A stretch of DNA of 64,000 bases from Candidatus Levyibacteriota bacterium (lineage in GTDB: Bacteria; Patescibacteriota; Microgenomatia; Levybacterales; UBA12049). A program made the translations under genes and the position numbers. This document shows, piece after piece, positions 6,880-61,585 of the stretch; within the stretch, counting starts at the first letter, position 1, and the number at the start of each line of letters is the position of its first letter. The DNA is taken from NCBI GenBank assembly GCA_016214555.1, contig JACROF010000012.1, forward strand, positions 4,343 through 68,342, in the 5' to 3' direction. Under the pieces are notes generated by a model that made no database searches, had not been told where the DNA came from, and worked only from the letters and a program-made list of their open reading frames with translations.

Positions 6880-6884
6880 ACACC

Positions 6885-10537: not shown

Positions 10538-11674
10538 ATGCCCACACGTAAAAATAGACAGATAGGTAAGTTCTTAAAACTTCTCCTTCTTTTAATTCTT
10601 ATTGGCGTTGTCCTAAAGATCTTGTTGCTGGTTATTACTTATGCGCCTGTTGCATATCAGTTGGCTTTTGATAAAAAAATATCTCTAAAAAAAGTAGCTG
10701 ATGAGAGGATTAATGTGCTACTCCTTGGTATTGGGGGAGGAAATCATGACGGGCCAAATTTAACAGATACGATTATTTTTACAAGTATTGATCCGAAAAA
10801 TAAAAAAATTACAATGATTACTCTCCCTCGAGATCTTTGGATACAAGATTTGAATTCTAAGATTAACAAAGCATACTCAGATGGTCAGGAAAATGGGAAA
10901 GGACTTGTTCTTGCAAAAGCAGCTGTTGGAAAAGTTTTAGGACAAAAAATTGATTATGGTTTTCGTATCGATTTTAACGGTTTTACTAAAGCAGTTGATA
11001 TGATGGGAGGGCTTGATGTGACGGTTGAAAGAGCATTCGATGACTATGCATATCCCTTGAGTGGGAAAGAGGATGATCTTTGTGGCTATGAAGAGATAGC
11101 TATTGCTAGTTTTTCTGCCCAAATTGCGACAGGTAGTGCAACTGATGCAGATATATTTCCTTGTAGATTTGAACATCTCCATTTTGACAAAGGGCTTTTG
11201 CATATGAACGGAGAGACAGCCTTAAAATATGTTCGATCACGTCACGCTCTCGGACCTGAGGGGTCTGACTTTGCTCGCTCAAAAAGACAAGAGAAAGTCA
11301 TAAGTGCGTTTAAAGAAAAAGTTTTTTCTGCTGGGACACTTCTTAATCCATTAAAATTAGTAAGTCTTTTTGACACCTTTCAGTCAAGTATAGATACTGA
11401 TATTAAGAAAGATGAGTATGATGATTTTGTAAAACTTGCCAACAAAATGAGGGGAGCAATAACAAAAAATTATGTTATCGATACTGGGGATGAGGAAGCA
11501 GATCGACCGGCACTTCTTTATAATCCTCCCCTTACTCCAGATAGATTTGGTGGTGCATGGGTTTTGATTCCAAAAAAAGGAGAGAGTAATTACTCAGAGA
11601 TACAAAATTATGTGAAGTGCTTGGTGGAAAATAGTGGTTGCCTAGCTACTCCTACGCCAATAAGTAAAAAATAA
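10538..11674 (+). CDS. LytR-CpsA-Psr (LCP) family cell-envelope phosphotransferase
   Basis: N-terminal TM; INVLLLGIGGG...LTDTIIFTSIDPKNKKITMITLPRDLW LCP core motif. Confidence 0.7.
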   Translation: MPTRKNRQIGKFLKLLLLLILIGVVLKILLLVITYAPVAYQLAFDKKISLKKVADERINVLLLGIGGGNHDGPNLTDTIIFTSIDPKNKKITMITLPRDLWIQDLNSKINKAYSDGQENGKGLVLAKAAVGKVLGQKIDYGFRIDFNGFTKAVDMMGGLDVTVERAFDDYAYPLSGKEDDLCGYEEIAIASFSAQIATGSATDADIFPCRFEHLHFDKGLLHMNGETALKYVRSRHALGPEGSDFARSKRQEKVISAFKEKVFSAGTLLNPLKLVSLFDTFQSSIDTDIKKDEYDDFVKLANKMRGAITKNYVIDTGDEEADRPALLYNPPLTPDRFGGAWVLIPKKGESNYSEIQNYVKCLVENSGCLATPTPISKK

Positions 11675-12028: not shown

Positions 12029-14248
12029 TTATATCGACATGCGATAGATTATCGTTGCCCCGCTTTGATAAACGACTTTCCCAAGAGTCTTAAAAACAGC
12101 TTCATTAACTGTATATTTTTCATGTTCTAAATTTCCTATGAAAACGTATTGAACTTTATATTTTTTTAACAAAACTAGCGTTTTTTTAATGTCTTTTGAC
12201 TCATACATCTGTTTGATCTCCTCAATTCGAGGAGCTGGGACGTCATATGTTCCTCGCCACAACCATTCATGTACTGTCCAACCAAGAATAGTTGGTAAGC
12301 CAGTGTTTGTTGAGACTCTTGCATAGTCAGTGTAGGAATCTCCTTGAGCCTCAAGAATTACTGGTTGTCCTGAAATATGCTCCTTCATCCATGCAATAGC
12401 TTTTGCATCATCAGGATATCTATCACTAAGATATCTAACGCCATTGAGTCCTTGGTGGTTGTTAAAGTTACCGTAATAAGAGCTCACTGCATAATATGGA
12501 TAAACGAAAACAAGTGAGAGAAGAAGAAGGGTTGTAGTAAAAAATAACATATAGGCAATTTTTGCAGATTTACTTGTCTGTGTTTTAAGAAAATGCATGA
12601 TGCGACTGATGCTATATCCGCTAACGAGCGAAAGCATGATAAAAGCTTGGAAAACAAGTTTAAACATGGTATTTGCTCTGTAATGAGCAGGGTATATATC
12701 TTTTGCATACATAAATTCAGGAATAATGATTAGTATTGTTGAAAGTGCAAAAATCATAAAAATAAAAATATCCGAGGCGTATCGTTTTGTTATTTTTTTA
12801 AGAGTAACCATAAGTGAAATTGCAAAAAAATAGAAAAAACCATATAGAACAAAAAGTTGCCATAATGGTGATTTTTGACAATGGTCTGTCTCAAAAAGAA
12901 ATGGACCAATTTGGCCCTTGGTAACAAGAAAATTAGGAGCACACAAGATACCGATCCCTGACACGAATGGCTTGAAGAATAATGAAAAAGGTAATGAAAA
13001 TATCACAAAACAACCGGCAAGAAATATTATCAAAGGAAATACTTTTGCACTTACAGATATGATCGATGACAGAAGTATTTTTTTATTTGTGAGCGACTCA
13101 TACTGTTGATATGCGAGAAGCATTATCGCCAATAAAAAATAGATTAGACCATCCCATGCATTGGTCATGTACATGCAGGCGAGAAAAAAGCCGAGAGTAA
13201 TAAGAGGTATCGATTGAGAAAAATGTACAGTTATTTTCTTTTTAAATAAAGATATTGAAAGTTTTTTTGTTGGGTTTTGTTTTTTGCTACTAATAAGAAG
13301 TGAAAATATGTAGGCAAGCGTTAGGAGAACAAATGGTATGTCTGTTACGTGTCCATGAAGATCTGAGACTGTCCAAGAGTACATAGGAAATTCATGGATT
13401 GTATTGTGAATAAACCTTGTAGCATTAGGATACCAATAGGAGTTGGGGAATGAGGACGGAGAAAATGCGAGACTCCACATGGGGATGGGATGATCATTTT
13501 CGTATGGTTTAAAAAAGGTATAGAGTGTATGAAGATTTCCAGAAAATGTCACGATGCATGCAGTGAGAATCCCTGCAACAATTATTTTGAATAAATATTT
13601 TTTTTGAATGAATTGGTTATAAAGATTTGCAGCAAGAGAAAAACTACCGACAAAGGTTAATCCTGCAAGTGTTGCTATCATGAGGTTGTAGGTGTATTCA
13701 GACTTAAGAAGTGATAATTTTGTCAGAACAGCCGTAATGAAATGGCCAAAATAATAATAGTTAATAGAAAAAGGAGTAAGCCACATGTCTTTTGGTGGGA
13801 AAAAATCACTACGTAAAATAGAATTAACAAATCCATAATCCATAAATTTTTCCAAGCCATTAATTTCAGGTGAATAAGAACGGATGAATGCCCAGATAAA
13901 AAGGATAACAATAAACAATATTTCTTCAACAACTATCCATCTCCACTGTGTTTTTAGTATTCTAGGTATAGAAATTATTTTTTTAGGATATTTTTGAGAA
14001 AGAAATATTTCTCCAGTAAGAATCAAAGCTGCTATAAGAAAAAGGCTTGCAAAAGAAAAGGGTAATATATGAAGAGTTCCAAAAAGGAGCATGAGATATG
14101 AGACTAAAAGTATTCCGAGACTTTTGCTGAATGCATAACCTTTATCTATAAAATGGTTAAAAAGAACCCCAGTCAAAGGAAGTGTGATAATGCCAACAAG
14201 GAAAATAGTTACCCACCATTGCAGCGTGATAATGAAGTCTATTGTCAT
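12029..14248 (-). CDS. large polytopic membrane protein with C-terminal soluble domain (DUF2298/YYY-like putative glycosyltransferase)
   Basis: 739 aa; about 14 TM helices then about 170-aa soluble tail containing LPTILGWTVHEWLWRG. Confidence 0.4.
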   Translation of the reverse strand: MTIDFIITLQWWVTIFLVGIITLPLTGVLFNHFIDKGYAFSKSLGILLVSYLMLLFGTLHILPFSFASLFLIAALILTGEIFLSQKYPKKIISIPRILKTQWRWIVVEEILFIVILFIWAFIRSYSPEINGLEKFMDYGFVNSILRSDFFPPKDMWLTPFSINYYYFGHFITAVLTKLSLLKSEYTYNLMIATLAGLTFVGSFSLAANLYNQFIQKKYLFKIIVAGILTACIVTFSGNLHTLYTFFKPYENDHPIPMWSLAFSPSSFPNSYWYPNATRFIHNTIHEFPMYSWTVSDLHGHVTDIPFVLLTLAYIFSLLISSKKQNPTKKLSISLFKKKITVHFSQSIPLITLGFFLACMYMTNAWDGLIYFLLAIMLLAYQQYESLTNKKILLSSIISVSAKVFPLIIFLAGCFVIFSLPFSLFFKPFVSGIGILCAPNFLVTKGQIGPFLFETDHCQKSPLWQLFVLYGFFYFFAISLMVTLKKITKRYASDIFIFMIFALSTILIIIPEFMYAKDIYPAHYRANTMFKLVFQAFIMLSLVSGYSISRIMHFLKTQTSKSAKIAYMLFFTTTLLLLSLVFVYPYYAVSSYYGNFNNHQGLNGVRYLSDRYPDDAKAIAWMKEHISGQPVILEAQGDSYTDYARVSTNTGLPTILGWTVHEWLWRGTYDVPAPRIEEIKQMYESKDIKKTLVLLKKYKVQYVFIGNLEHEKYTVNEAVFKTLGKVVYQSGATIIYRMSI

Positions 14249-14790
14249 TGTAAGTCTACTATTTCAGAGAGTTTTGAAATCTGCTTGATGTTATCTGGAA
14301 GCGATTGAGTACTTAATCCTTGGTGGTACCAATAGAATTTGATGTTCTTATTCTTTTTGGCTACATAAGTAAGGAGGTGAAGGTCATCATCTATGTAAAT
14401 ATCCAAATCTAGCATTTTTAGTATCCGATTTTTGAAAAGATGCGGCTGCTCATTATTGAAATTAAAATACATGTTCTCAAAAATTTTATGTAGCCCTAAT
14501 CTCTTTACAAGAGAGAGAGTTTGTTTTTCAAGAAAGCCAAATCTACTAGAGATTAAAAAAAGCTTATTTTTTTTCCTGTTCAGACTTTGGAGAAAAGTAA
14601 TATTTTCTTTAATTGGTGGTCTGAGGTAGTGATTGTGTGAGATTTTGCGAAAGAACTGTTCAGGATGAGATGGAATTCTGTAGAGTAGCTCCCTTTCATC
14701 TTTTTTTCGATAAAGCCTATCAATGAGAGAATCTGGAATCAATGGAGGATAATCAACAAAAATTTTATCTAAGTCAAAACCAATATTCAT
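14245..14790 (-). CDS. HAD-superfamily hydrolase (5'(3')-deoxyribonucleotidase-like)
   Basis: N-terminal FDLDKI DxD motif, later KLFLISSR and DDD motifs. Confidence 0.45.
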   Translation of the reverse strand: MNIGFDLDKIFVDYPPLIPDSLIDRLYRKKDERELLYRIPSHPEQFFRKISHNHYLRPPIKENITFLQSLNRKKNKLFLISSRFGFLEKQTLSLVKRLGLHKIFENMYFNFNNEQPHLFKNRILKMLDLDIYIDDDLHLLTYVAKKNKNIKFYWYHQGLSTQSLPDNIKQISKLSEIVDLQ

Positions 14791-15824
14791 ATTCGAGAAA
14801 TAATGTTGAGGAGTCTAAAATTCCAGCTAGCACGATGAGTGTCTCCTGTTTTGCTATGAATTTTGTTTCTATTCTTCTTGTACCATAGATAGCTCTCCAG
14901 TAAAAGCTCCTTGTTTGATTTTTTTGGGGTCCAGTGTAAAAGTTTTTGAGCTTTTTCTATGGATACATAAGATGGTATAGGCATTGTTTTATAATGCCAT
15001 GCGGCGATAGGTGAAAGATTCAGCACTTCAAGTATTTTGAGAATTACTTGAGAAGGGATAACTGGAAGGCCTGTAATTTTTGATTGAGATTTTTCAGATT
15101 TGATGATAAAACTTAAATCTTTTCTCCACGTTTGATATTCTTTTGCGCCAATATTAAATATTTCATTTGTAACATCGCTTATTAATGCCTTGTAAATAGC
15201 ATCTGCAACATCAGAAACGGCTAGGAGTTGGTATTTGTTGTTTCCTTTACCGAGCACAAAAACTCTTCTACCTGTATATATCGCTTCAAACCACAGAGAA
15301 AATACGCCTAATCTTTCTGGTCCTAAAAAAGTTTTGGGACGAATAATATTTATATCCAGGCCTTTTTGTATAAATTCTTTACAAAGATGCTCAGCAAGCA
15401 ATTTCGATTGTCCATATTGTCCAATTGGCTCCATAGGACTTTCCTCAGTCTCTGGAAGATGCTTTGGGATACCATAGAGGGCTGTTGTAGAAATAAAAAC
15501 TAGCCTTTTAACGCTCGCTTCGCTTGCTGCCTCTAAAACTCTTTTTGTTCCATTGACATTAACACTATAAATTTTCTGCTTTGTTCTTTGAATGGGTAAT
15601 GCAGCTGCTGCATGAATAACATGAGTTACGTTTTTCATTGCGGAGTTGATGTCGTTTTTTTTCCTCACATCTCCTTTAATAAACTCTACATTTCCAATCA
15701 AATCTTTGGCATCAAGTGGGGCTATGTCAAAAAGGGTTACCTTAAAATCCTTTTTAAGCAGCAATCTGGCAACATGAACTCCTAGAAATCCGGAGCCGCC
15801 TGTAATTAAGACATGGGGCCTCAT
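14787..15824 (-). CDS. NAD-dependent epimerase/dehydratase (SDR family)
   Basis: N-terminal ITGGSGFLGVHVARLL Rossmann motif, YxxxK-type catalytic region; 345 aa. Confidence 0.75.
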   Translation of the reverse strand: MRPHVLITGGSGFLGVHVARLLLKKDFKVTLFDIAPLDAKDLIGNVEFIKGDVRKKNDINSAMKNVTHVIHAAAALPIQRTKQKIYSVNVNGTKRVLEAASEASVKRLVFISTTALYGIPKHLPETEESPMEPIGQYGQSKLLAEHLCKEFIQKGLDINIIRPKTFLGPERLGVFSLWFEAIYTGRRVFVLGKGNNKYQLLAVSDVADAIYKALISDVTNEIFNIGAKEYQTWRKDLSFIIKSEKSQSKITGLPVIPSQVILKILEVLNLSPIAAWHYKTMPIPSYVSIEKAQKLLHWTPKKSNKELLLESYLWYKKNRNKIHSKTGDTHRASWNFRLLNIISRI

Positions 15825-15873
15825 AGAAGGTTATTGTAGCGTGTGGTTTTTCTTGATACAAGAAGTAAACCAT

Positions 15874-17568
15874 CTATTTATTCATATTCTTAAAGATAGT
15901 GACAACTGGGTGATCATAGACACTAAATGATTCATCAAGATTTTGGTCATTTAGCTCAAGAGTAGTGAATGGGATTGTAGCAAAGGATGAGAATTCTGCA
16001 ACTTTTTTGTATCCAAGCTTTCCTTTAAATAGGTCATCATAGTATTTAGCAGTTTCTTTGTAACATCTGCCTTTGGGTAGATTTTGGCAGTCAATAAGCT
16101 TGCTAAGTGGCTTATAAAGTCTGCTTGATGAAAGGATTAGGTAGTCACTTTTTTGTAAGGATGATGCAATAATGCTCCATTTCAATGGTGAGTCTGGCTC
16201 ATAAAGTGCAAGAGTCTCGTATTGATAATCGCTTGCGTTAAATAAAGGAAGGGAGTCATCCCAATGCTCAACTGCTATAGTGCTTGAGGAAGGGATGTTT
16301 TTTGTAATCCATATACTAGCCTCATATCGCGTGAAAGGTTTTGTATAGATTGACATAAAGGAGATTGGCCAGGTAAGTACGCCAATAAGAAAAATACATG
16401 CAAGAACCATTTTAGGAGACTTCAGTTTTATAAAAATCTGATAACTTACAAGGCCACCGAAGAGGCAAAGAATTGGATATAGAGGTAGTATATACCTGAT
16501 AAATCCTACAGCAAATTTTCCAACAATTAAAAAATAACTCAAAAAAAAGATCAGAAGTATTAGCTCTTGTTTTTTAAAAAGTCCAGCCTTTTTTGTCTTG
16601 ATATCAATTGCTCTTTTGATAATTCCAAAAAAGCATGTTAAGGCAAGAATTGGACCCATCCCTACAAAAAATACTTGAGTGAGTTCGTAAATATAGGGAA
16701 TCTTTCCTACGTATTGAAGCGTGTAAGGGAAAGTAAAAGCGTTTTTTGTCATTTGCGCTTGGGCTAGAGTTTGCTGCCAAAATTCAGGAAAAGCAATAAG
16801 CACATATGGTTGAAAAACAAAAAATAACAATACTGTCATAGCTCCTGTTGCAAGAAAATAAAGAATAAGTTTTTTCAAAAATGAAGGAACGTGGGCGATC
16901 CAGCTCTTAGGGTGAGGGCTTTTCTTAATGATTAGTAAAAAATCAATGGAGAGGGCGAAGAGAAAAGATACAATCAGTACTGTCGCACTAATTTTTGTTG
17001 AGAGAGACGCTGCAAGACTTGCTCCAATAAGGAGGCTTAATTTTAGAGAAGGATTCTCATAAAAACGTATGAGAAGATATAGCGTGAGAAGTATAAAAAA
17101 AGAAAGTAATGTATCAACTGCATAAAAACGAGAGAGTTGTATTGGCAATACACTTATTCCATAAAAAAAGGCAGCCAGAGCTCCAACTTTATTATTCCAA
17201 AGACGCCTACCAATGAAAAAGACGAGAGACAATATTCCAAGGTCAGCAAAAAGAGAAATAGCTCTTCCAATAATTGTCAAATAGTCATAAGAGAAATATT
17301 CTGGTTTAAAAATGGCAATAAGTTTTCCCACAAAGTAAAGCATGTAGAGAGGTAGTGATCCATATGCAAAAAAATGGGGATTCCAGGTGCTGTTCGGGTT
17401 AAAAAAATCAGCTACTGTTTTTGGAAAAGAAAGTTGATTTGTAAATAGGATTATAGCTCTCTCATCCGGATGCATATGAAATCCATGATCCCAATTTATG
17501 CCATATACTCTCATAAGCCCTGAAGCTATAAAAATTGTGATAAATAAAATCTTGCTATTATTTTTCAT
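15874..17568 (-). CDS. GT-C-fold membrane glycosyltransferase-like protein, paralog A (PMT/ArnT-like)
   Basis: 564 aa, polytopic; first-loop HPDER motif and NPHFFAYGSLPLYM shared with the adjacent paralog. Confidence 0.5.
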   Translation of the reverse strand: MKNNSKILFITIFIASGLMRVYGINWDHGFHMHPDERAIILFTNQLSFPKTVADFFNPNSTWNPHFFAYGSLPLYMLYFVGKLIAIFKPEYFSYDYLTIIGRAISLFADLGILSLVFFIGRRLWNNKVGALAAFFYGISVLPIQLSRFYAVDTLLSFFILLTLYLLIRFYENPSLKLSLLIGASLAASLSTKISATVLIVSFLFALSIDFLLIIKKSPHPKSWIAHVPSFLKKLILYFLATGAMTVLLFFVFQPYVLIAFPEFWQQTLAQAQMTKNAFTFPYTLQYVGKIPYIYELTQVFFVGMGPILALTCFFGIIKRAIDIKTKKAGLFKKQELILLIFFLSYFLIVGKFAVGFIRYILPLYPILCLFGGLVSYQIFIKLKSPKMVLACIFLIGVLTWPISFMSIYTKPFTRYEASIWITKNIPSSSTIAVEHWDDSLPLFNASDYQYETLALYEPDSPLKWSIIASSLQKSDYLILSSSRLYKPLSKLIDCQNLPKGRCYKETAKYYDDLFKGKLGYKKVAEFSSFATIPFTTLELNDQNLDESFSVYDHPVVTIFKNMNK

Positions 17569-19171
17569 AGTTAATTTTGAAAATCATAACTGTTGGTCTA
17601 TCAAAAACATTAACTGTCTGCTCAGGGCCAAAAATTGGATCAAAGGAGTAGGCAATCTTGCACCAAAAGTCGCAAGGCGTCTCATAGATTTTTTTATATG
17701 TAGTTGAGTTGTCTATTTGTTTATATATCTTGTTTCCTTTTGGAAAATGGACAGGGTCATGTAAGCGGGTTTGATATAGTCTTTGACTAGGTAGTACAAG
17801 ATAATCAGATTGTGCAATTTTGTCTTTATATATTGTTAGTGTTGCATCAGGAGAATTATTTTCTAGATCATAAAAGTTAAAAAGCTCAACTGATGGATAA
17901 TATTGATTAAAAGGAATGATGCCAAGGTCATAAATCTCAGAAAGAATTTTTTTATTTGTTGGTATATTTATTTTCGCAAATGTAACCGCCTCAATTCTTG
18001 TGTCTTTTTCAAGGTATACAGTTTTTACAAATGAAAAAGCAAAAACAAGATTAAGCACTCCCGCTATGCCCCCTAAAAATATAAGTGTTTTTTTATTTTT
18101 CTTACTACTCTCATAAATAATTATTGCCGTTAATGAAAGCATGAGATAGATAAAAGGAAGGGTAGGAACAAAGTATCTTGTCCATTGTGCGAAGAGAAAT
18201 GTTTGTGACAGAAATGATGTAAAAAAGAAAATAAGAAGATAGACTAGTTCAATGTTAAATTTTTTAGTAAGAGTGATTATGAGAACTGCTATAGATAATG
18301 GAATTAAAACAGTATGAATTGGGTTAACTAGATGAGGATAGATTTTTAAAAAAGGGAAGACAATTGGAGTTGCGGTTAAAAATTCTCCAGTATAAAAAAC
18401 TACGATCTTTCCAAGAGCTACATTTGATTCATAGGTAATACTATTTATGAAAGAGCGGGTATCAAGAAATGTGAATGGATTAGTAATGCTATAAAAAATA
18501 GCAGCAGACAATAGTGCACCTCCAGCTATAAGAGATTTCTTAATAAGAGTATAATTTTTTTGAAAAAAGATAAGACTAATAAAAGGTAAATAGATTACGC
18601 TTGAAATTTTTACACCGATGAGAACTGAAAGGCTAAAGGCAAGAAGTAAGGCATGAGCCAGTGAGGGGCTTTTTTGATAGAGGAGAACGCTTAAGAATAA
18701 GAGAGCCAAAAAAAATGTTAGCCACATTTCAAATGTCCCAAAATGTGCATACTGAATCATACCTACTCCTGTTGAGGTAATGTATGCGGAAATGATTCCT
18801 GCACTTTTATTTTTTAATAGAGCTCCTATTTTATAGACCAATAGAATTGTTCCACATGAAAATAGAAATGAAAAAAATCTTAAAATTACGACCGCATCCT
18901 CAAATCCTACTTTGTTTGGAGAAATTACCTCTTGTGAGAAAAGGTTTTTTACAAGTCCTAAAAAGAACGTTACATAAATAGGTAGTGATCCATATGCAAA
19001 AAAATGTGGGTTCAATTGATCTGGAAATCTCATTCCAGAAATTGCGTTTGCAATATTTCGCTCATCAGGGTGAAAGAAAAAAGGCGACCCCCAGAAGAGA
19101 TTTACAGCTCTTAAGATCGTCCCTAAAACAACAATAGCTATAAGTGCCTTGTAAGAAAAAGTTTTTTGCAT
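17558..19171 (-). CDS. GT-C-fold membrane glycosyltransferase-like protein, paralog B
   Basis: 537 aa; HPDERNIANAI...NPHFFAYGSLPIYV; same topology as 15874..17568. Confidence 0.5.
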   Translation of the reverse strand: MQKTFSYKALIAIVVLGTILRAVNLFWGSPFFFHPDERNIANAISGMRFPDQLNPHFFAYGSLPIYVTFFLGLVKNLFSQEVISPNKVGFEDAVVILRFFSFLFSCGTILLVYKIGALLKNKSAGIISAYITSTGVGMIQYAHFGTFEMWLTFFLALLFLSVLLYQKSPSLAHALLLAFSLSVLIGVKISSVIYLPFISLIFFQKNYTLIKKSLIAGGALLSAAIFYSITNPFTFLDTRSFINSITYESNVALGKIVVFYTGEFLTATPIVFPFLKIYPHLVNPIHTVLIPLSIAVLIITLTKKFNIELVYLLIFFFTSFLSQTFLFAQWTRYFVPTLPFIYLMLSLTAIIIYESSKKNKKTLIFLGGIAGVLNLVFAFSFVKTVYLEKDTRIEAVTFAKINIPTNKKILSEIYDLGIIPFNQYYPSVELFNFYDLENNSPDATLTIYKDKIAQSDYLVLPSQRLYQTRLHDPVHFPKGNKIYKQIDNSTTYKKIYETPCDFWCKIAYSFDPIFGPEQTVNVFDRPTVMIFKINYEK

Positions 19172-19174
19172 AAT

Positions 19175-20452
19175 CTAGGAGGTGGCTATCTTTGCGATTT
19201 TTTCTCCTAACTCAACTGCATAATTTGTTCCCCTATCCCACGGATATACTTGTTCGATATTTGCCAAAAATGTATGAGGTAGCGGAGTCTTAAAAGGAGG
19301 GATGAGTTTGGAATAATTTGTGGGAATGATCGGTTGTGCGAAAGGAGCTCTAAATACATCATAGGAGATGATATTTTTTTGATAATCAGGATTTATTTTC
19401 TTAAGTAAAGGATCATATCTTTTTAAGAGATTTTTTTTGTCCATTATAAAAAGTTCGCTATGAGGATCTGGGTAATTTCCAACATATACGATGTGTTCAT
19501 TGTTGAAATGTTTTTTATTCATAAGATTTGTGTGCTCTACAACCACCATTACTGGAGCATCTTTTTCGCATATGCTTAACCAGTATGTGTTGTCCTCAAG
19601 CATGTGTTTTTTCAATCTCAGGATCATATTTGTCGCACCCAACCCTCTCAGTCTTACTAATGTTTCTTTATAGCTTTCAGGAAGGTCTGGTGCAATTTTG
19701 AGAAAAAGAAAAGAGGGAAGAGTTACGATTATTCGATCGAATTTTTCAGTCTTTTCTTTGTTGTTTTTTACATAGGTTATTTGAGCGGTTTGACTATCTG
19801 AGAGATTAATTATTTCAGAATTATAGTTGATGACTCCCCCACCATTGCGGATTTTTGACGCAAGAGCATTGGCAAATTTTAGAAATCCTCCTTCTGGATA
19901 AGCAAGAGAAGGAGTTCTCTTGTAGATTCTTGTCCAGAACCAAACAAGTGAAATTTCTGTTGCATATTTTCCCATTTTATTTTTAAGTTGTGGTTCCCAG
20001 AGCATAGAGAAAGCTTTCTCACCCATTGTTTTTTTAAGAAATGAAATGGCATTTATTTTTTCAAGTGGACGCCAAAAAGGATTTAGCTTTAGAAAGGCAA
20101 GGATAAAGCTCATGCGAAGCTTGTCAAGGAGGGGGAGTTTGGGAAAAGAGAGAATTGCCAAGGGCGAATCTAGTTGATAGCTTTTTCCATCCAAGAAAAC
20201 TGAGGTTTTTGGTCTTTTAATTATTACTGGAAAATCAATTTCGTGGGCTAAATTTAGTATATGATTATCGTTTGTGAACCAGTGGTGATAGTGTTTTTCT
20301 AGAGTCCAGTTCCATTCCTTTTCTTTATAGCCAAGAGCAAGCCCTCCAGGATTTGGGTCTTTTTCAAAAATAGTTACCTTATGGCCATTTTTTTGTAGAT
20401 AAAAAGCTGCAGATAGGCCCGTAAAGCCGGCGCCGATTATACCTATTTTCAT
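19175..20452 (-). CDS. FAD/NAD(P)-binding oxidoreductase (amine-oxidase / protoporphyrinogen-oxidase-like fold)
   Basis: N-terminal MKIGIIGAGFTGLSAAFYL dinucleotide-binding motif; 425 aa. Confidence 0.6.
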   Translation of the reverse strand: MKIGIIGAGFTGLSAAFYLQKNGHKVTIFEKDPNPGGLALGYKEKEWNWTLEKHYHHWFTNDNHILNLAHEIDFPVIIKRPKTSVFLDGKSYQLDSPLAILSFPKLPLLDKLRMSFILAFLKLNPFWRPLEKINAISFLKKTMGEKAFSMLWEPQLKNKMGKYATEISLVWFWTRIYKRTPSLAYPEGGFLKFANALASKIRNGGGVINYNSEIINLSDSQTAQITYVKNNKEKTEKFDRIIVTLPSFLFLKIAPDLPESYKETLVRLRGLGATNMILRLKKHMLEDNTYWLSICEKDAPVMVVVEHTNLMNKKHFNNEHIVYVGNYPDPHSELFIMDKKNLLKRYDPLLKKINPDYQKNIISYDVFRAPFAQPIIPTNYSKLIPPFKTPLPHTFLANIEQVYPWDRGTNYAVELGEKIAKIATS

Positions 20453-21843
20453 AATGATTTTTTACCAAGGTGGAGCAGGAAGAAACCAGTGCTTAATATG
20501 ATTACAGAGATTATACCTGAAAAAAGGAGCATTGGACTTCCAGGATTTTCCTCAGGCGGAGGAACACTTTGTGTTAGAAGTGCCGTGGGGACTGGCGATG
20601 TGGGCGTTGGTGAGTGTGTAGGACTCGGAGAAGATGATGGCGCAAGGGTTGGGCTAGGTGTTGGTGTCTGCACTTTAGGAGTAGGAGTAATTGTAGGAGA
20701 GGGGATGACAGAAGGTTCAACAAACTGACTGCCTTCAGCAAAAACAGTAAAGGACCGGGTAATTGTTTGAAGAATGCCGTCTTTATTTTTTGTTTTAATA
20801 GTGATTGTATGTTCACCAGGTGAAAGCTTGGTGTCTGGTCGATAGGACCATGTGCCTCCTGTCCCAGATTTGATTGTCGTTGTGATTTGCTCATCAGAGT
20901 GTATTTCAATCTGAATTTCACTGTTGGGAAGTGCTGTGCCTTCGAATGTTGGTTGGTTATCATGAAGGGGCTCCTCTTTTTCAGGAGATAGGATAGTTGG
21001 GTTACCAGATGTTGATACCTCAGTTGCGCTAAATGAAGGGAATGAGCTTGAAGTATCAGCTGATGAAGATGCAATAGGCGCAGTATGCTGTTCAGCTTCG
21101 GATGTAAAGTCGTAGGAATTTGTTATGGTAACAGGCGGAACGGGGTTAATTTGACTTGGCAAAACGGAGACAGTAGCTTTTCCTTGTGGACTAACTGCGA
21201 GAAGTTTGATGATGCTTTGTGTTCCAAATTTACTATATGAGAGAAAATCTTTCTTTCTGAGAGCATTCAGCGGCATGATAAAGGTCCCATCTTTTTTTGT
21301 TAGTACAGAGAACGTTTGCGTGTCATCACTGACTAAAAATACTATAGTGTTGTTATCTGAGGACCCATCAGGATAGTTAACAGTTCCAACGATCGGCTGT
21401 TGTGAGTTCGGACTTTCAGATAAATGCATTAATGTTTTAATGGCAAATGGTTTTCCTTTATCTAAGAATGTTTTATCTGAGGAAGTAATTGAAAAATAAT
21501 ACTGCGTATTAGGCTCTAAATTTTTAACAGTAATATGATGAATAGAATAAGGCTGTGGAATTCCTGACTGTTGATCTCTGTCATCTAATGCAACTTTTCC
21601 ACCAGACGAAGTTTTTCCATACCCTAGACTTCCTAAGACACTATCTTTGGTTATGTAGGAAACAGTGAAAGACGAGTCTGTTAGGTTAGTTATTCTGATT
21701 TCTTCAGGGGAATATGTTGGAGATGCCTTCGTCAGAAAGAAAACTCCATGGTTAACAGCGTAGTTGAATATGAAAATACCAAATCCAATAAGAATGAGGC
21801 CTAATAGTGTTGGGATTCTTTTATACAACAATGATCCTTGCAT
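20449..21843 (-). CDS. membrane-anchored surface protein with FN3-like and Ig-like domains and PT-rich linker
   Basis: N-terminal TM/signal anchor; purple-acid-phosphatase-N/FN3-like segment (RITNLTDSSFTVSY...NLEPNTQYYFSI); Ig-like segment; PT-rich linker; C-terminal TM helix. Confidence 0.55.
   Translation of the reverse strand: MQGSLLYKRIPTLLGLILIGFGIFIFNYAVNHGVFFLTKASPTYSPEEIRITNLTDSSFTVSYITKDSVLGSLGYGKTSSGGKVALDDRDQQSGIPQPYSIHHITVKNLEPNTQYYFSITSSDKTFLDKGKPFAIKTLMHLSESPNSQQPIVGTVNYPDGSSDNNTIVFLVSDDTQTFSVLTKKDGTFIMPLNALRKKDFLSYSKFGTQSIIKLLAVSPQGKATVSVLPSQINPVPPVTITNSYDFTSEAEQHTAPIASSSADTSSSFPSFSATEVSTSGNPTILSPEKEEPLHDNQPTFEGTALPNSEIQIEIHSDEQITTTIKSGTGGTWSYRPDTKLSPGEHTITIKTKNKDGILQTITRSFTVFAEGSQFVEPSVIPSPTITPTPKVQTPTPSPTLAPSSSPSPTHSPTPTSPVPTALLTQSVPPPEENPGSPMLLFSGIISVIILSTGFFLLHLGKKSL
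20580..20705 (-). repeat. low-complexity Pro/Thr/Ser-rich linker coding region within the surface protein gene
   Basis: encodes SPTITPTPKVQTPTPSPTLAPSSSPSPTHSPTPTSPVPT; generates spurious ORFs in other frames. Confidence 0.6.
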
Positions 21844-21844
21844 A

Positions 21845-22165
21845 TTATATTGCTCCTTCTACTGCAGAGTCAGAAGCAGTTGGCTCTAAGTCAGGTACTA
21901 GTTCGCTTGTAGGAGAAGCATCTGGTGTGTCTTGTTCAGATTGATTCCCAAGGCTGAAGTCAGCCAAAATAGCATCTCTTTTTTTAAGGTCATCAATAAC
22001 ACTTGCATCAAAGGTGGATGAGATAGGTGTGATAAGAAGGCTTTGAGGTTTGGTAAGGGTTGAATTGACTGCTTTACTATAAATTCCCAAGATGATCCAT
22101 ACAAGTATAACAAATGCAGAAGGGATAAGAATATAAAGTAAATTTTTTTGTTGTTGTGGTTTCAT
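21845..22165 (-). CDS. small single-pass membrane protein (possible pilus assembly accessory, PilP-like position)
   Basis: 106 aa; N-terminal TM helix then acidic/Ser-rich tail; sits directly downstream of pilO-like gene. Confidence 0.3.
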   Translation of the reverse strand: MKPQQQKNLLYILIPSAFVILVWIILGIYSKAVNSTLTKPQSLLITPISSTFDASVIDDLKKRDAILADFSLGNQSEQDTPDASPTSELVPDLEPTASDSAVEGAI

Positions 22166-22166
22166 A

Positions 22167-22793
22167 TTATGGTTGATAGTATGCGCTTGCCTGAATGATT
22201 AGCTTTAACTCTCCAGACTTTTGATCTGCAGGAACAGTGAGTGTTAAAGAGGTGATGGTAATAATTCTCTCTATGTTGACAATATCTTCGTAGAATGACT
22301 CCATATCTGATAATTTTCCTTGGATGGTAAGTGCGATAGGTATTTCCTGAAGTGTACTAGACATTTTTTTATGAGTAGCTAGTTCGACAGATTGTGTTTG
22401 TAGCTGTGTAAGAGTGACGTTATTTGTTGATGCAATTGTTCGGAGTTGACCAGCAAGTTTTGTTAGTTCTGCAGATGTAGGAACAGCTTTGTATAAAATA
22501 GGAAGCTGCGAAGACAAGGGTTGGTATGCCTGGTCAAGAAGTGTCATATTGGCAATTTTTGTTTGGAGTTGTTTATCAAGGTATTTGTTGTCTTCAAGCG
22601 TTTTTTTAAGTTCAGAGATGGTTGAAAGCGTTGGACTTATAGCAAAAATACCAAAAAACATACAAGCAGTAATAGTCAAAATAAGCGTTGCATACGTCTG
22701 AACTTTTTCCTCGTGAATATTTGGAAGTGAACGAATATATTTTAGGTAACGCTCTTTTGAAAGCTTACTGAGAAGTTCTGGAGTAATTTTCAT
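22167..22793 (-). CDS. type IV pilus assembly protein PilO-like
   Basis: 208 aa; cytoplasmic N-terminus, single TM, coiled-coil, C-terminal beta-rich domain; 4-nt overlap with the pilN-like gene. Confidence 0.45.
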   Translation of the reverse strand: MKITPELLSKLSKERYLKYIRSLPNIHEEKVQTYATLILTITACMFFGIFAISPTLSTISELKKTLEDNKYLDKQLQTKIANMTLLDQAYQPLSSQLPILYKAVPTSAELTKLAGQLRTIASTNNVTLTQLQTQSVELATHKKMSSTLQEIPIALTIQGKLSDMESFYEDIVNIERIITITSLTLTVPADQKSGELKLIIQASAYYQP

Positions 22794-23362
22794 TGCTTAG
22801 CCCCCTTTTCACCTTCTAACTTACTTTTCCCCAGGACTCCAGATGAGATTACGGCTGCAATTTGCGCTGTCGTTGATTTATTTTCAATTCTATCGATACT
22901 TACCTCAGATAGCTCTTTTTTTTCTTGAATACCTCCTACGAAATCTCTCAAATTTTTTATATCAAAAGCAACTAATTCAATATGGAGAGAATTATTGCTT
23001 ACAGACATACTTTTAATAGAAATGTTATTTTTTTGCGCAAGCAATGTTATGTCTTCTAAGAGAAGGGGAAGAAAAGCAACATCGGTGTTAAGCTTCTTGG
23101 TTTGAAGAAGCCTTTCTTGCAATTGGCGATATGAGTCTTCTTGTTCTTTGAAAGTTTCTACAATTCTTGTTTTTGCTTTAATTTTGTCATGAAGGTCGAT
23201 GATTTGACGATCAAGCGTAAAACGATAGAGAAAAGCGGCAAGCGCAATCGTTTCTGTAAGAATGACTAAAAATCTTCCGCCAGTAATTGCCCATTTAATA
23301 AAAACATCAAGGGAGGGAGTGCCCTTTTTTTTAAGAAGATTGATTGTTAGTTGTTTGGTCAT
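22790..23362 (-). CDS. type IV pilus assembly protein PilN-like
   Basis: 190 aa; N-terminal LTINLLKKK (INLLP-like PilN motif) followed by TM helix and coiled coil. Confidence 0.55.
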
Positions 23363-23537
23363 GGCAGGCAGATTGTGTTTAACAACACAAACACAGCCGA
23401 CAGATAATCAGCCTTATCTCAGTCTAAGATCTTTTTCCTTAAAAGTAAAGAAAAACACTTTTTATTTCATGCTAGAAATAGGCGCAAAATTGTGTTATAC
23501 TTTCTTTGTCCCGAATAGATACGGGATTTTTCTTTCT

Positions 23538-25646
23538 ATGGCAGATACACAACGACAGGTACCACTTGATAAAATCCGAAATATCGGAATTATTGCTCAT
23601 ATTGACGCAGGTAAAACAACAACTACCGAGCGTATTCTTTTCTATACAGGCCGAACTTATAAGATCGGAGATATCGATGAAGGGAACACGCAAATGGATT
23701 GGATGGAACAGGAGAAAGAACGCGGAATTACTATTGTTTCAGCTGCGACTACTACTTTCTGGAAGGATCATCGCATCAATATAATTGATACTCCTGGCCA
23801 TGTTGATTTTACCGCAGAAGTAGAACGTTCTTTAAGAGTTCTTGATGGAGGCATTACCGTGCTGGATGCAGAAGAGGGAGTGCAGTCTCAGTCAGAAACT
23901 GTTTGGCGTCAAGCTGATAAATATAAAGTTCCTCGTATCTGTTTTGTCAACAAAATGGATAAATTAGGCGCAGACTTTCTTGCAACAGTAAAAAGTATTG
24001 AAGATCGACTTGGTGCAAATCCGGCAATTATGGTTCTTCCTATTGGTGCAGAAAGTACGTATGTAGGAAATGTTGATCTTTTGACAAGACAATCAATCCG
24101 TTGGAGCTCTGAAGAGCTTGGAGCAAAGTTTGACCTTTCAGACGAAATTCCCTCCGATATGAAAGATCAGGTAGAAGAGTATAGAGCAAAACTTATTGAA
24201 AAAATTGCTGAGACAGATGATGCACTTTTGGAAAAATATCTTGGCGGAGAAGAGCCTTCAATTGACGAGCTCAAGAAAGCTCTCCGTGCGGCAGTTATCG
24301 CCTACAAACTTGTTCCTATTTATGCTGGAACTTCGCTTCGCAATAAAGGAGTTCAGCCACTTTTGGATGCGGTTGTTGATTTTCTCCCCTCCCCTGTTGA
24401 TCTTAAAGAGGTTACAGGAGTTCATCCCAAAACAGGAGAGCCAGAAGTAAGACAGCTTGTTCCAGATGCTTCATTTAGCGGTCTTGCATTTAAGATCCAA
24501 AACGATCCTCATGTAGGAAAATTGACCTATTTCCGTGTTTATTCAGGAAAAATTGAAGCTGGATCCTATGTATATAACAGCACAAAGGGAGTTAAAGAGC
24601 GCGTAGGAAGACTTCTTATGATGCATGCAAATCAGCGTGAGGAGATAAAAGAAGGATTTGCTGGAGAAATCGTTGCTGTCGTTGGCCTAAAAGATACAGG
24701 AACTGGTGATACATTGTGCGACGAGACAAAGCAGATTGTTTTGGAAAAAATTTCGTTTCCTGAGCCTGTTATATCCCTTGCTATTGAACCTCAAACAAAA
24801 TCTGATCAGGAAAAACTTGGTTATGCCCTTAAAAGACTTACTGAGGAAGATCCAACATTTTCTGTTAAAAGCAATCATGAAACAGGACAGACGATTATTT
24901 CAGGTATTGGAGAATTGCAGCTTGAGGTTATGGTGGATCGCATGAAGAGGGAGTTTAATGTGCTTGCAAATGTTGGTGCGCCGCAAGTTGCGTACAAAGA
25001 AACATTTACAGAAAAGGTAGAGGCTGAGGGTAAATATATTCGCCAATCAGGAGGAAGAGGACAATTCGGACATTGTTGGCTTCGTATAGAGCCAAAAACT
25101 CGTGGAGAAGGAAATGAATTTGTGAGCGAAATTAAAGGAGGAGCTATTCCTGCGGAATTTGTTAAAGCTGTTGAAAAAGGAGTTTGGGAGACGCTTGAAA
25201 ATGGCGTTCTTCTTGGATATCCAGTCGTTGATGTAAAAATTGCGTGCTATGATGGCTCATTCCACGAAGTAGACTCAAGTGAGGTTGCATTTAAGATTGC
25301 AGCAAGTCAGGCGATTCAGGCTGCATCTAAAAAATCCCAAATGAATTTACTTGAGCCTATTATGAAGGTTGAGGTTACAACACCCTCTGAGTATATGGGA
25401 GATGTGATGGGAGATCTTTCAAGTAAGCGTGGGCAAATCGTTGGAACAGAAGAAAGGTCGCGAGCAACGATCATTAATGCGCTTGTACCCCTTGCTGAGC
25501 TCTCAGGCTATGCAACTCAAATTAGGTCGATGTCTCAGGGGCGAGCATCTTATTACATGGAGCCAAGCCATTATGATATCGTTCCAAGAAATATCGTTGA
25601 GCAAATGCTTGCTAAATCCACCTTCACAGGCCGTGTTGAAGCATAA
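23538..25646 (+). CDS. fusA: translation elongation factor G
   Basis: [38 protein letters not shown]...DTPGHVDF...NKMD; about 703 aa from ATG at 23538; the ORF-track start at 23262 is an upstream in-frame extension. Confidence 0.9.
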
Positions 25647-27538: not shown

Positions 27539-28576
27539 TTACAAGACCAATGCATAGTCTTGACGAAAGCTATCAAACGCAGCAATTGCGATTGAGAGAG
27601 TCCGATCGTCTAGACACACATGGTCGCACAACATCATGGTGCGAAAGCCAGCGTTATAGAGATAGGCAAGTTCCGAAAAATCAGCACATTCAGGTGTGTC
27701 CTGGGGTTCTCCAGTGATTGGGTTTTTTTGCCCCAAGGAAAGGAAGATTCGTGAACCAACACAGGCCTCGGGATCTTTTTGAATAATCTCCTCAAGTGCT
27801 TGAAGAATGTGATGAGGGCGAGGAAGCTCAACATAGAGGTCTCCCCGTGCCGCCATCAATCTGACGTTTGGCTGTGGCTTAAAGCTCTTTCTGACATAGG
27901 TCATTCCCTTTGGTGACTCAATCTTGAGCATGACTGTTGCGTCGTGCCCAACAAGATCTAGGAATTGCCCTACGTCCTCCTCAGACTCTACATAGGAAAG
28001 AAAGAATCTTGTGAATCCTGCAGCCTTCACCATCTCAATTTTTTCAAGTTCCAGGTCTGTGAAGAGTGGTCCTTGAATTGAGAGGCTAGCATTGCGGATG
28101 CACATCGAGTCGCCTGGTACGACTTCAGATCGAGGTCCATATCGTTTGCCAGGTGCAAAAATTAGCCTCTTACCGTCATCTGCGATAGCTATGAGGATTG
28201 CATGATCTGATCCAGATTTGAGCTCTACTGGAATACCACGGGCTGGATCGACATTTAGAGAGATAGGGTGATTGAGGGTGACTTCCAAATGCGTTGGATA
28301 GTCATGCACCTCTGCAACCCGAATCTGCCGACTTTTGATGTCATACCACATAGGGACAGTGGAATATGTCTTGCGAAGGACCTCAAGGTCCTTCGCAAGA
28401 TCAGAAGGGTTGACCATCGGCCTATTGAGGCGGATGCCGCTTAGGCGATGGTCAGTTGCAAATGTGGCAAAATGCGGCATTGTTGGCCACAAAGTTGCCA
28501 TGAGATCCAGCCTCTCAGGAGTCATAGGAAAATCCTGAGGCTGTGTCTTAAAAAGGTCGAGAAACCGGTTTGGCAT
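27539..28576 (-). CDS. pyruvate-kinase-like (PK barrel) protein with about 120-aa N-terminal extension
   Basis: VMLKIESPKGM and RLMAARGDLYVELP spaced exactly as PK KIEN...MVARGDLGVEIP (22 residues); downstream TMMLCDH resembles PK VMLSGE; start taken at MPNRF (ATG 28576-28574) after a GGAGG RBS; the ORF track extends to 28642. Confidence 0.5.
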   Translation of the reverse strand: MPNRFLDLFKTQPQDFPMTPERLDLMATLWPTMPHFATFATDHRLSGIRLNRPMVNPSDLAKDLEVLRKTYSTVPMWYDIKSRQIRVAEVHDYPTHLEVTLNHPISLNVDPARGIPVELKSGSDHAILIAIADDGKRLIFAPGKRYGPRSEVVPGDSMCIRNASLSIQGPLFTDLELEKIEMVKAAGFTRFFLSYVESEEDVGQFLDLVGHDATVMLKIESPKGMTYVRKSFKPQPNVRLMAARGDLYVELPRPHHILQALEEIIQKDPEACVGSRIFLSLGQKNPITGEPQDTPECADFSELAYLYNAGFRTMMLCDHVCLDDRTLSIAIAAFDSFRQDYALVL

Positions 28577-29537
28577 CTTCATCCTCCAAGAGCATGATCG
28601 ACTTTCCGCTATGATCGCGGGGATCACCAGGGGAGACAGCAAGAATTGTCTTGAGTGACCTGTATGCCGCCTCTACCTGTCCTGGTTTTTGTCGCTCATT
28701 GATCTCATCGTGATAAAAATCAACTTTACCGGTCTTTTTGGCGAAGATACCCAAAATGACATCAACGACTCGGTTGGGGTCACGAAGAATCGCGATGTGG
28801 TCCTCTCCCAGTAGCTTCACCCAGTCAGCATGAATTGCACTACTCTCCGGGTCTAGGGACTGCAGTGAATCAGCAGTCGAATGGCTATAGGGCTTTTGAA
28901 TGAAGTAGACATCGGAGTCTTTATTCAGCTTAGCAAAAAGCTCTGCTGTTGTGATTCGTTCTGTCGTGACCTTGGCAAATTGTTGCGCAAGTTTTGGGCT
29001 CACCTCGTCATATGGTGACTCGTCGCCAAGGAAAATAATGAGCGGTCTTGTCGCATTGGGCATTGAGACGTTGTGAGATACGTACAGTGCAGCGAGCTCA
29101 TAAGACTCAGTGGTTTTGGGGCCACCACCACCTTCATATTTCAATCGAGTTGGGTCGAGTTCCGCCTTGAGATCAGCGCCTTGTGCAAAGGCGTGTCCTT
29201 GAAGCGGATATTTGTCACAGGTTGCATCGCCAACAGCCATGAAAAGGATCTGGGCGTCATCATCAAAGTAGATCTGACGAGCGTAGGTGTCAAGCAGAGG
29301 TAGCTTGCCACGAATTGTGGCTGGCCACTCCTGCATTGATCCGGTGACGTCAATCACAACGATAATTGGGTGCCTACTTGTTGTAGTAATAGTTGCTGCA
29401 AGAAGAGATGAGGCAGATACCCCAGAGCTTACAGCACTGGAATAGCTCCGTCCAGCGTCAACAACGTAAGCGTTGCGTGCAGCAGTGAAATCGCTATCAT
29501 CTCTCCATTCTCTTGGAGTACTGATTGCACTTCCCAT
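28548..29537 (-). CDS. von Willebrand factor A (vWA) domain protein
   Basis: IIVVIDVTGSM MIDAS-type DxTGS motif at the start of an alpha/beta domain; 329 aa. Confidence 0.55.
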   Translation of the reverse strand: MGSAISTPREWRDDSDFTAARNAYVVDAGRSYSSAVSSGVSASSLLAATITTTSRHPIIVVIDVTGSMQEWPATIRGKLPLLDTYARQIYFDDDAQILFMAVGDATCDKYPLQGHAFAQGADLKAELDPTRLKYEGGGGPKTTESYELAALYVSHNVSMPNATRPLIIFLGDESPYDEVSPKLAQQFAKVTTERITTAELFAKLNKDSDVYFIQKPYSHSTADSLQSLDPESSAIHADWVKLLGEDHIAILRDPNRVVDVILGIFAKKTGKVDFYHDEINERQKPGQVEAAYRSLKTILAVSPGDPRDHSGKSIMLLEDEDAKPVSRPF

Positions 29538-29539
29538 CG

Positions 29540-61097: not shown

Positions 61098-61102
61098 GGG
61101 TC

Positions 61103-61585
61103 ATGGACCACTTTGAAAATTATTTTACTCTTGCTATTAGACTTCTTGCGAGACGATCTCGTTCAAAAAAAGAATTGATTGATTATCTTAGAAAAAAGAA
61201 AGCCCCAGAAGAAGTTATTGCTAGTGTTTTATCAAAGCTTGAAGAGAAAAAATTCCAAAGCGATGAGGATTTTACTAGATGGTGGGTTGAACAGAGGATT
61301 CGATTTCGATCTAAAAGCGATAGAGCTATTACTGCTGAGCTCTTGCAAAAAGGAATAGAAAAAGATTTGATAAAAAAAATACTCAATGAATTTAATGATA
61401 GTGGGCAAACAGATCTTGCAAAAGCAAAAAAAGTTGTTGAAAAAAAGATTAAGAAATATCAGTCTTTATCAAAAGAACAACAATATCATAAGTTGGGCTT
61501 TATGCTTGCGAGGATGGGGTATAGCTGGGAGACAATTAGACAAGCAATTGACGCATATTACCAAAGAGACTATAATACGGAGTAG
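61103..61585 (+). CDS. recX: RecA regulator RecX
   Basis: 160 aa helical-repeat protein immediately downstream of recA; RecX-like sequence. Confidence 0.7.
   Translation: MDHFENYFTLAIRLLARRSRSKKELIDYLRKKKAPEEVIASVLSKLEEKKFQSDEDFTRWWVEQRIRFRSKSDRAITAELLQKGIEKDLIKKILNEFNDSGQTDLAKAKKVVEKKIKKYQSLSKEQQYHKLGFMLARMGYSWETIRQAIDAYYQRDYNTE

Follow-up and report, generated by a model that had tools for sequence, protein, structure and literature searches.

A conserved PilN/PilO-containing envelope module of Microgenomates, set apart from pilM and joined to a small bitopic protein and a three-domain envelope protein

In the type IV pilus (T4P) machines of Thermus thermophilus and Pseudomonas aeruginosa, the INLL(P) peptide of PilN binds PilM, anchoring it to the membrane platform. 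Bacteria of the candidate phyla radiation (CPR), whose envelope comprises a single membrane, a wall, and a surface layer, are thought to need type IV pili in order to attach, move, and take up DNA; as a group they carry PilM, PilN, and PilO and no PilQ, with PilM, PilB, PilC, and PilT being widespread (PMC6744442). A complete genome of the Microgenomates, ultra-small bacteria belonging to the CPR, is described as having one T4P locus with PilA, minor pilins, PilD, PilB, PilT, PilC, and PilM, in which PilN and PilO are unlisted (PMC7143001). Our analysis concerns a stretch of 64,000 nt (the window, by which we mean this whole stretch) from a Candidatus Levybacteriota (Levybacteria) metagenome-assembled genome, extended by about 10 kb beyond its left edge and about 9 kb beyond its right edge, and within it a module of four genes encoding a PilN-type protein, PilO, a small bitopic protein, and a large envelope protein. 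With a confidence that stops just short of even, we read this module as a PilN-PilO platform that docks a PilM supplied from another locus and whose operon has, where pilP and pilQ would stand, genes for two envelope partners specific to the lineage.

In Microgenomates the four minus-strand genes make up a single module, conserved and translationally coupled. A reading made from the letters of the window alone (hereafter the sequence-only reading) had placed here a pilN/pilO-like pair overlapping by 4 nt, followed by two further genes and with fusA upstream on the other strand, and all of these elements were found:

22790-23362, minus strand: PilN-type gene, 190 aa, open reading frame present
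22167-22793, minus strand: PilO gene, 208 aa, open reading frame present
21845-22165, minus strand: small bitopic protein gene, 106 aa, open reading frame present
20449-21843, minus strand: large envelope protein gene, 464 aa, open reading frame present
23363..23538, no strand: intergenic region between the module and fusA, presumed by position to be the operon promoter region

The divergent fusA gene lies on the plus strand, its true start being near 23539. Co-transcription of the four genes, also proposed at the outset, was taken as supported; they share one strand, with junctions of -4 nt (PilN/PilO), +1 nt (PilO/small), and +1 nt (small/large). The extent of the unit had to be redrawn: the four genes stand, whereas the boundary described after them does not, the operon running on through a 4-nt overlap into glycosylation genes. 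Consensus promoter and terminator scans at the locus performed no better than shuffled sequences, and the promoter is therefore placed by position only. In the Rfam scan of the region and window a tRNA-Pro alone was matched, with no RNA element at the module. Membership of the module in a defence system was considered and dropped, PADLOC giving no match.

The conservation of the arrangement was followed through species-representative genomes, a scan of which yielded 62 loci, mostly from Levybacteria with some from Gottesman-, Beckwith-, and other Microgenomates. Wherever the contig at such a locus is long enough, all four genes stand next to one another in unchanged order, and most module junctions measure -4 to +4 nt. 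The same four-gene arrangement was found on metagenome contigs, including three with an INLLP-type PilN of other Microgenomates, so that the module extends over lineages of the Levy-, Gottesman-, Beckwith-, and Shapirobacteria type, among which its flanking genes differ. Since the same adjacency and tight junctions recur in related loci, the arrangement is not due to chance. It could in principle reflect slow rearrangement, with PilN and PilO serving a pilus and the small and large proteins, surface proteins without relation to it, simply encoded in the same operon. Synteny is indeed generally kept at these loci, where rpsT, MurJ, and triose-phosphate isomerase are also conserved neighbors; upstream of the module lie MurJ (-) and then rpsT (+) at most loci, and fusA (-) in the subclade of the window. 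However, the four genes stay together as both flanks change (fusA versus MurJ/rpsT on one side, glycosylation versus unrelated genes on the other), and their start/stop overlaps are kept where the PilN-type proteins are only about 25-45% identical, which makes the absence of any functional link very unlikely in our estimation.

The second gene is a clear PilO. Its product matched Pfam PilO PF04350 at 52.5 bits (cutoff, 22; E value, 7.5e-14), residues 74-205 aligning with positions 16-141 of the 145-position profile, and the PilO-like architecture first noted from the letters is thereby confirmed; a single transmembrane segment (residues 35-53) following a K/R-rich N-terminus gives it the bitopic topology of PilO. 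It and the adjacent PilN-type protein are distant paralogues (hhalign E value, 6.5e-5). The first gene is, at family level, a PilN-family member. Its product, identical to that of locus tag HZC02_03240, is bitopic with a single hydrophobic segment at residues 26-44. In the profile searches proposed as a check PilO passed outright, and the PilN assignment holds for the family, given its motif, its fold, and relatives that do pass Pfam, the window protein itself scoring 16.6 bits against PF05137, below the cutoff of 22.8. Relatives of this protein within the same module carry PF05137, as do all 120 listed homologs of the INLLP-type subgroup. A profile built from 42 sequences of the PilN-type family matched Myxococcus xanthus PilN (3jc8_Na) collinearly with an E value of 0.096, and an exhaustive profile search with this family gathered 876 cluster representatives at E ≤ 1e-10; among the matches listed, divergent Microgenomates members have the full INLLP. 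The AlphaFold2 model (predicted local distance difference test [pLDDT], 85) comprises a free N-terminal peptide, helices over residues 16-111, and an outer domain of alpha-beta-beta-alpha-beta-beta order. The transmembrane segment, coiled helices, and ferredoxin-like (alpha-beta-beta)x2 outer domain that define the PilN/PilO/GspL/GspM fold class are thus all present in the model, and the best Foldseek matches were periplasmic domains of this kind: PilO (3jc8_Oa, 2rjz), GspL (5hl8, 5n7l, 2w7v), EpsM (1uv7), and PilN (4bhq). The N-terminus also carries the peptide expected of a PilN:

23324..23350, minus strand: N-terminal peptide LTINLLKKK, residues 5-13, the counterpart of the canonical INLLP motif of PilN

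Across 106 full-length PilN-type homologs this S/T-I-N-L-L peptide is conserved to 88% at I7, 99% at N8, and 98% at L9. The window protein, reading TINLLK, has Lys in place of the Pro of INLLP, as is the case throughout the Levybacteria subclade, and the Pro is kept in other Microgenomates members. Taken together, the motif, the fold, the profile match, and the PF05137-positive relatives indicate a PilN-family member in a Levybacteria branch that has drifted below the Pfam cutoff.

The 106-aa membrane protein noted downstream of the pair does have one N-terminal transmembrane segment. About 40 conserved extracytoplasmic residues follow (STI...PI.P.FD..TI..LK.R), and the protein ends in an acidic tail rich in Pro, Thr, and Ser. 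It was found at 58 of about 65 loci, with lengths of 63-122 aa, and gave no match in Pfam, NCBIfam, the PDB, or PADLOC. Its operon position is that of PilP. The protein has no Cys and is therefore not a lipoprotein. An identity as PilP was rejected on the lack of a lipobox Cys, of a match to PilP or any other family, and of a PDB match, position alone being analogous.

The fourth gene occupies the operon position of PilQ and encodes a protein with an N-terminal transmembrane segment or long signal peptide at residues 12-30. In Pfam it matched Pur_ac_phosph_N/fn3 at residues 49-124 (Pur_ac_phosph_N, 34.3 bits) and Big_13 at residues 294-366 (42.2 bits). Its AlphaFold model (pLDDT, 81.6) shows a transmembrane helix at residues 10-31, three beta-sandwich domains, a disordered stretch at residues 375-437, and a C-terminal helix. 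The N-terminal anchor, fibronectin type III (FN3)-like domain, immunoglobulin (Ig)-like domain, and Pro/Thr linker of the sequence-only reading are all recovered, and a third beta-sandwich in the middle (about residues 148-247), which it had not listed, has to be added:

21424..21711, minus strand: D1, FN3/purple-acid-phosphatase-N-like domain, residues 45-140, with an invariant DDRD...H cluster (D87, D90, H102)
21103..21402, minus strand: D2, middle beta-sandwich, residues 148-247, with CarboxypepD_reg-like matches in some orthologs
20734..20997, minus strand: D3, Big_13 Ig-like domain, residues 283-370
20554..20733, minus strand: disordered stalk rich in Pro, Thr, and Ser, residues ~371-430, pLDDT ~40-50
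20449..20553, minus strand: C-terminal signal, consisting of EENPG, a hydrophobic helix at residues 439-457, and a GKKSL tail

Across orthologs, the stalk has a median length of about 62 aa and consists of 24% Pro, 24% Thr, and 12% Ser. Foldseek returned tandem FN3/Ig arrays alone (contactins, fibronectin, SiiE, SbsB, and Bap). A match to a known enzyme family, which would have told against the surface-protein assignment made from the letters, did not appear: Pfam and NCBIfam showed FN3/Ig-type domains alone, with no catalytic profile, and Foldseek gave no enzyme fold. The sole enzyme-associated match is to the N-terminal FN3-like domain of purple acid phosphatase, which is not known to be catalytic. 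An identity as PilQ or another secretin was likewise set aside, since Pfam gave Big_13, Pur_ac_phosph_N, and fn3 alone and neither a secretin domain nor N0/N1 domains, and an identity of the large or small protein as a pilin or pseudopilin was discarded because none of the four module proteins has a class III signal peptide (G|F/M-T-L-x-E).

In its degree of conservation the large protein matches its pilus-type partners. Among the 627 homologs found, the 120 listed are 404-499 aa long and share the same Pfam domain set, and an alignment of 51 sequences has 36 invariant columns. Median identity to the window proteins across 46 loci is 42.7% for the large protein, 39.8% for PilN, and 35.3% for PilO; D1 and D3 reach 53% and 55%, with triose-phosphate isomerase standing at 47% for comparison. 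The protein is present in a single copy per module at every locus examined and is uniform in length. Conservation on a par with PilN and PilO, together with this copy number and length, makes it unlike a host-specific adhesin and rules out a fast-evolving one; the proposal that it serves as an adhesin for episymbiotic attachment did not hold up. Rather than encoding a variable adhesin, the module probably supplies the envelope-side part of a Microgenomates machinery resembling type IV pili. A second, shorter Big_13/Big_6 protein (400 aa) was seen on one Microgenomates contig (L071, 5448-6650), upstream of the module and beside GH39 and cellulase-like genes.

What had been described simply as a C-terminal transmembrane helix of the large protein is ancestrally an LPXTG sortase signal, here reduced to EENPG. 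At the C-terminus of many orthologs stands LPKTG, LPATG, LPPTG, or IPPTG, with a hydrophobic helix and then a basic tail behind it, and the LPXTG_anchor model TIGR01167 scored 17.4-24.0 bits (cutoff, 15.9) in 5 of 5 orthologs tested; it matched neither the large protein of the window nor one close relative. The EENPG of the window is a degenerate LPxTG in which the invariant G435 alone is kept, the motif no longer being intact. Since five orthologs pass TIGR01167 and the window protein does not, the signal appears ancestral for the family and degenerate in this genome. No sortase gene was revealed by the Pfam and motif scans of the window, nor was one found in its two extensions; sortase is reported to be near-ubiquitous in Microgenomates (PMC6744442). 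In Gottesman-, Beckwith-, and other Microgenomates, Cys-rich and Pro/Thr-rich secreted proteins are encoded downstream of the module (L061, 12782-14704; L063, 12832-17826; L064, 12807-15176; L066, 6764-9204), several of them with LPxAG or LPxSG and a hydrophobic helix at their end; they are likely to be further sortase substrates clustered with the module.

Another explanation, close to the idea of the sequence-only reading, is that PilN and PilO belong to a piston-like T4P or pseudopilus resembling a type II secretion system (T2SS), the large protein being its dedicated substrate, pushed through the wall and then anchored. With its N-terminal signal, folded domains, Pro/Thr stalk, and LPXTG motif, the protein is indeed laid out as a wall-anchored surface protein, and in the monoderm Clostridium perfringens efficient secretion of the matrix protein BsaC requires PilM, PilN, and PilO along with PilA3, PilB2, PilC1, and PilD (bioRxiv 10.1101/2024.11.04.621531). 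However, sortase substrates normally need nothing beyond Sec and sortase, and the strong conservation of the large protein points to a structural part rather than to cargo or an adhesin. The N-terminal hydrophobic segment is followed, about 14 residues on, by a conserved site of the form small residue-x-A | S/G-P. The segment itself is long, and its conservation (KRIPTLLG) is higher than cleaved signal peptides usually show, which suggests that it is retained as a transmembrane partner. We consider a role as dedicated cargo improbable.

In the platform reading that we prefer, which is also the simplest, the single-pass proteins PilN and PilO would associate by way of their helices and ferredoxin-like outer domains, making up the membrane platform of a T4P-type machine. 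The cytoplasmic INLL(P) peptide of PilN would dock an actin-like PilM encoded elsewhere together with the motor genes, and the small and three-domain proteins may link the platform to peptidoglycan, possibly within one physical four-protein complex. The outcome would be an envelope adaptor or conduit for a pilus or pseudopilus in a single-membrane organism. In favor of this reading are the Pfam score of PilO, the fold class of the PilN-type protein, the conservation of INLL, the intactness of the module and its tight junctions, the conserved large protein with no enzyme fold, and the orthologs with LPXTG. The literature adds the reported near-ubiquity of sortase in Microgenomates and the lack of PilQ in CPR (PMC6744442), as well as the T4P locus that has PilM and for which PilN and PilO are not named (PMC7143001). 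The near-perfect conservation of the INLL(P) peptide argues that a PilM-like partner exists.

Several observations weigh on the other side. Pfam scans of nearly all larger open reading frames of the window found no PilM, PilB, PilC, PilT, or PilD, and motif scans of its reading frames found neither pilins nor a second PilN/PilO. No pilM or other T4P gene was found in the two flanking extensions, and at none of about 60 loci is the module preceded by a gene of PilM size on its own strand, with no pilB, pilC, pilT, or pilin gene near the module either. The observation that no pilM-like gene precedes the pair is thus borne out in the window, beyond both edges, and across these loci; the wider search once suggested for pilM, pilB, pilC, pilT, and pilin genes was carried over the window and its extensions and recovered none of them. 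The pilM-pilN adjacency that marks the T4P alignment subcomplex is missing here, and pilMNO are contiguous in most known systems, including those of Saccharibacteria (PMC11623550). Neither the small nor the large protein showed homology to PilP or PilQ in Pfam and PDB searches. The transmembrane region of the PilN-type protein (residues 24-51) contains the invariant polar or charged residues G29, R30, E37, R47, and D51; to our knowledge, invariant charged residues in the transmembrane segment do not occur in canonical PilN. A conserved charge that could pair with these residues was sought in the other three module proteins, and none was found. F44 and F48 of the same region are likewise invariant, and the whole signature is kept across the Microgenomates family, INLLP-type members included. 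Coupling of the module to glycosylation genes and its MurJ and LytR-CpsA-Psr (LCP) flanks fit wall biogenesis equally well. As a separate observation, adjacent recA and recX genes lie at 59988-61585 on the plus strand of the window, followed by genes for RNase Y, HU, an ABC transporter, and an AddA-like helicase, and T4P genes are absent over the next ~9 kb; in Saccharibacteria TM7x, recA-recX adjoins T4P locus 2 (PMC11623550).

The genes that continue the operon and close the region are as follows:

12029..20452, minus strand: operon continuation, co-directional; frequent, non-universal partners of the module
19175-20452, minus strand: FAD amine-oxidase-like gene (NCBIfam PRK07233, 381 bits)
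17558-19171 and 15874-17568, minus strand: two GT-C/PMT_2-like proteins
14787-15824, minus strand: NAD epimerase
14245-14790, minus strand: 181-aa protein of unknown family, with an N-terminal FDLDK motif (possibly HAD-like)
12029-14248, minus strand: DUF2298 protein
10538..11674, plus strand: LCP gene (Pfam, 109.5 bits), in the same position in Microgenomates relatives

Junctions from the large protein gene through this continuation are -4, +3, -11, +49, -4, and -4 nt. Across loci, the FAD amine-oxidase-like gene follows the module in 43, usually by a 4-nt overlap, and is succeeded by the GT-C/PMT, epimerase, 181-aa protein, and DUF2298 genes; other loci have a protein with 8-9 transmembrane segments plus a canonical PMT, or further Pro/Thr-rich, Cys-rich proteins ending in LPxAG/LPxSG. 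Most loci with enough sequence end the region with an LCP gene on the other strand. Past it, in the window, genes for FemAB, a TPR protein, and another PMT_2 protein occupy 3926-7898 on the minus strand. The combination of an FAD oxidoreductase, an epimerase, and GT-C enzymes recalls polyprenyl-phosphate sugar pathways, such as DprE1/DprE2 with GT-C in the arabinosylation of P. aeruginosa pilins. Because PMT-type GT-C genes neighbor the gene of the Pro/Thr stalk, glycosylation of the stalk, as suggested in the sequence-only reading, is plausible, and the downstream enzymes together with LCP probably glycosylate the stalk, build the wall polymer through which it passes, or both.

A rival reading is a T4P-independent envelope scaffold, in which the PilN/PilO-like pair would organize secretion, O-glycosylation, and sortase- or LCP-dependent wall attachment of the co-encoded glycoprotein or of a wall glycopolymer. 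The partner of the INLL peptide would then be a different actin-like protein, such as FtsA or MreB, through which the process would be directed to places where wall is being made. The 4-nt overlap into the FAD oxidoreductase, GT-C/PMT, epimerase, and DUF2298 genes, the conserved flanks MurJ, LCP, and FemAB, the additional Pro/Thr-rich proteins ending in LPxAG after the module in distant lineages, the separation from T4P genes at all loci examined, and the atypical transmembrane signature of PilN all speak for it. In known systems, however, INLL(P) is a specific PilM-docking peptide, and the glycosylation genes are dispensable, many loci keeping the module without them. We also know of no PilN/PilO family member outside type IV filament or T2SS machines. 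On balance, such a scaffold seems to us rather unlikely, although likelier than a cargo role.

Three further features of the window are recorded here. A GC-rich island at 27539-30556 on the minus strand (GC content 0.48, against about 0.36 elsewhere) has no RNA gene and encodes three proteins: one of 367 aa with a weak match to the pyruvate-kinase barrel, one of 329 aa with a vWA-type VVIDVTGSM, and a fusion of a DnaJ domain with a Ser/Thr kinase. A DUF2207 membrane protein is split into two reading frames at 52852-53709 and 53828-54595 on the minus strand, but a Logan contig of the same sample has it as one gene of 591 aa (L070, 1718-3493), which suggests either a frameshift or that the assemblies differ. 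GC skew is positive along nearly the whole window (1-64000), whatever the gene orientation; strand composition disparity has been reported for the complete Microgenomates genome (PMC7143001).

The module is a concrete candidate for the missing envelope part of the CPR pilus machine, conserved across a whole class, and if the PilN/PilO pair works without a pilus, the known uses of the PilN/PilO fold would be widened. The annotation of the module genes is also corrected; in these genomes they mostly appear as "hypothetical" or "fibronectin type III domain protein". We tentatively propose, as a possibility still somewhat doubtful, that Microgenomates PilN/PilO, uncoupled from PilM, share their operon with the genes of a small bitopic protein and of a glycosylated three-domain protein tethered to peptidoglycan, and form with these either a wall-spanning T4P adaptor not recognized before, which would replace PilP/PilQ in a single-membrane bacterium, or, more radically, the first PilN/PilO pair outside a filament machine, acting as a wall-glycoprotein scaffold.

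The PilN/PilO pair belongs to the PilN/PilO class, and the whole module is a member of no described system. It lacks the defining features of PilP, PilQ, GspL, and pilins and, in this genome, an intact LPXTG signal as well, and our literature searches returned no description of such a module. The Actinomyces oris protein GspA, an LPXTG surface glycoprotein, owes its glycosylation to an LCP enzyme and its anchoring to sortase. With Gram-positive LPXTG glycoproteins of this kind the large protein shares the N-terminal signal, folded domains, Pro/Thr-rich stalk, LPXTG motif, helix, and basic tail, as well as LCP and PMT genes nearby; it differs in its motif, degenerate here to EENPG, in its conserved N-terminal segment, and in the strict coupling of its gene to PilN/PilO, a coupling that we know of for no sortase substrate. 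BsaC secretion in C. perfringens offers a parallel in a monoderm, where a PilM/N/O-containing machinery helps a matrix or surface protein across the wall, but there the cargo operon lies apart from the pil genes and PilM/N/O sit in a standard T4P locus (bioRxiv 10.1101/2024.11.04.621531).

Compared with GspL-GspM(-GspC) of the T2SS, whose GspL and GspM periplasmic domains are among the best structural matches (target-normalised TM-score, 0.73-0.74; root mean square deviation, 2.2-2.6 Å), the module is conceptually similar in linking a platform to an envelope-spanning partner, whereas it has no cytoplasmic GspL domain and no GspC or GspD homologues and is found in a monoderm host. The type IVa pilus PilM-N-O-P(-Q) machinery of P. 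aeruginosa, M. xanthus, and T. thermophilus has the same PilN/PilO topology, fold class, and INLL(P) peptide, and its N-O-P-Q order is paralleled by PilN, PilO, a small protein, and a large beta-rich envelope protein; the module differs in that its operon is without pilM, its third protein is neither a lipoprotein nor a PilP beta-sandwich, its fourth is no secretin but a three-domain FN3/Ig protein whose Pro/Thr stalk precedes an ancestral LPXTG signal, and the operon continues into glycosylation genes. The T4P of Clostridium and loci 1 and 2 of Saccharibacteria TM7x share with it a single-membrane envelope and PilN/PilO without PilQ (PMC11623550). In those systems, pilMNO sit with pilB, pilC, and pilin genes, whereas the PilN/PilO of the module stand separate at every locus examined and are coupled instead to wall-protein and glycosylation genes.

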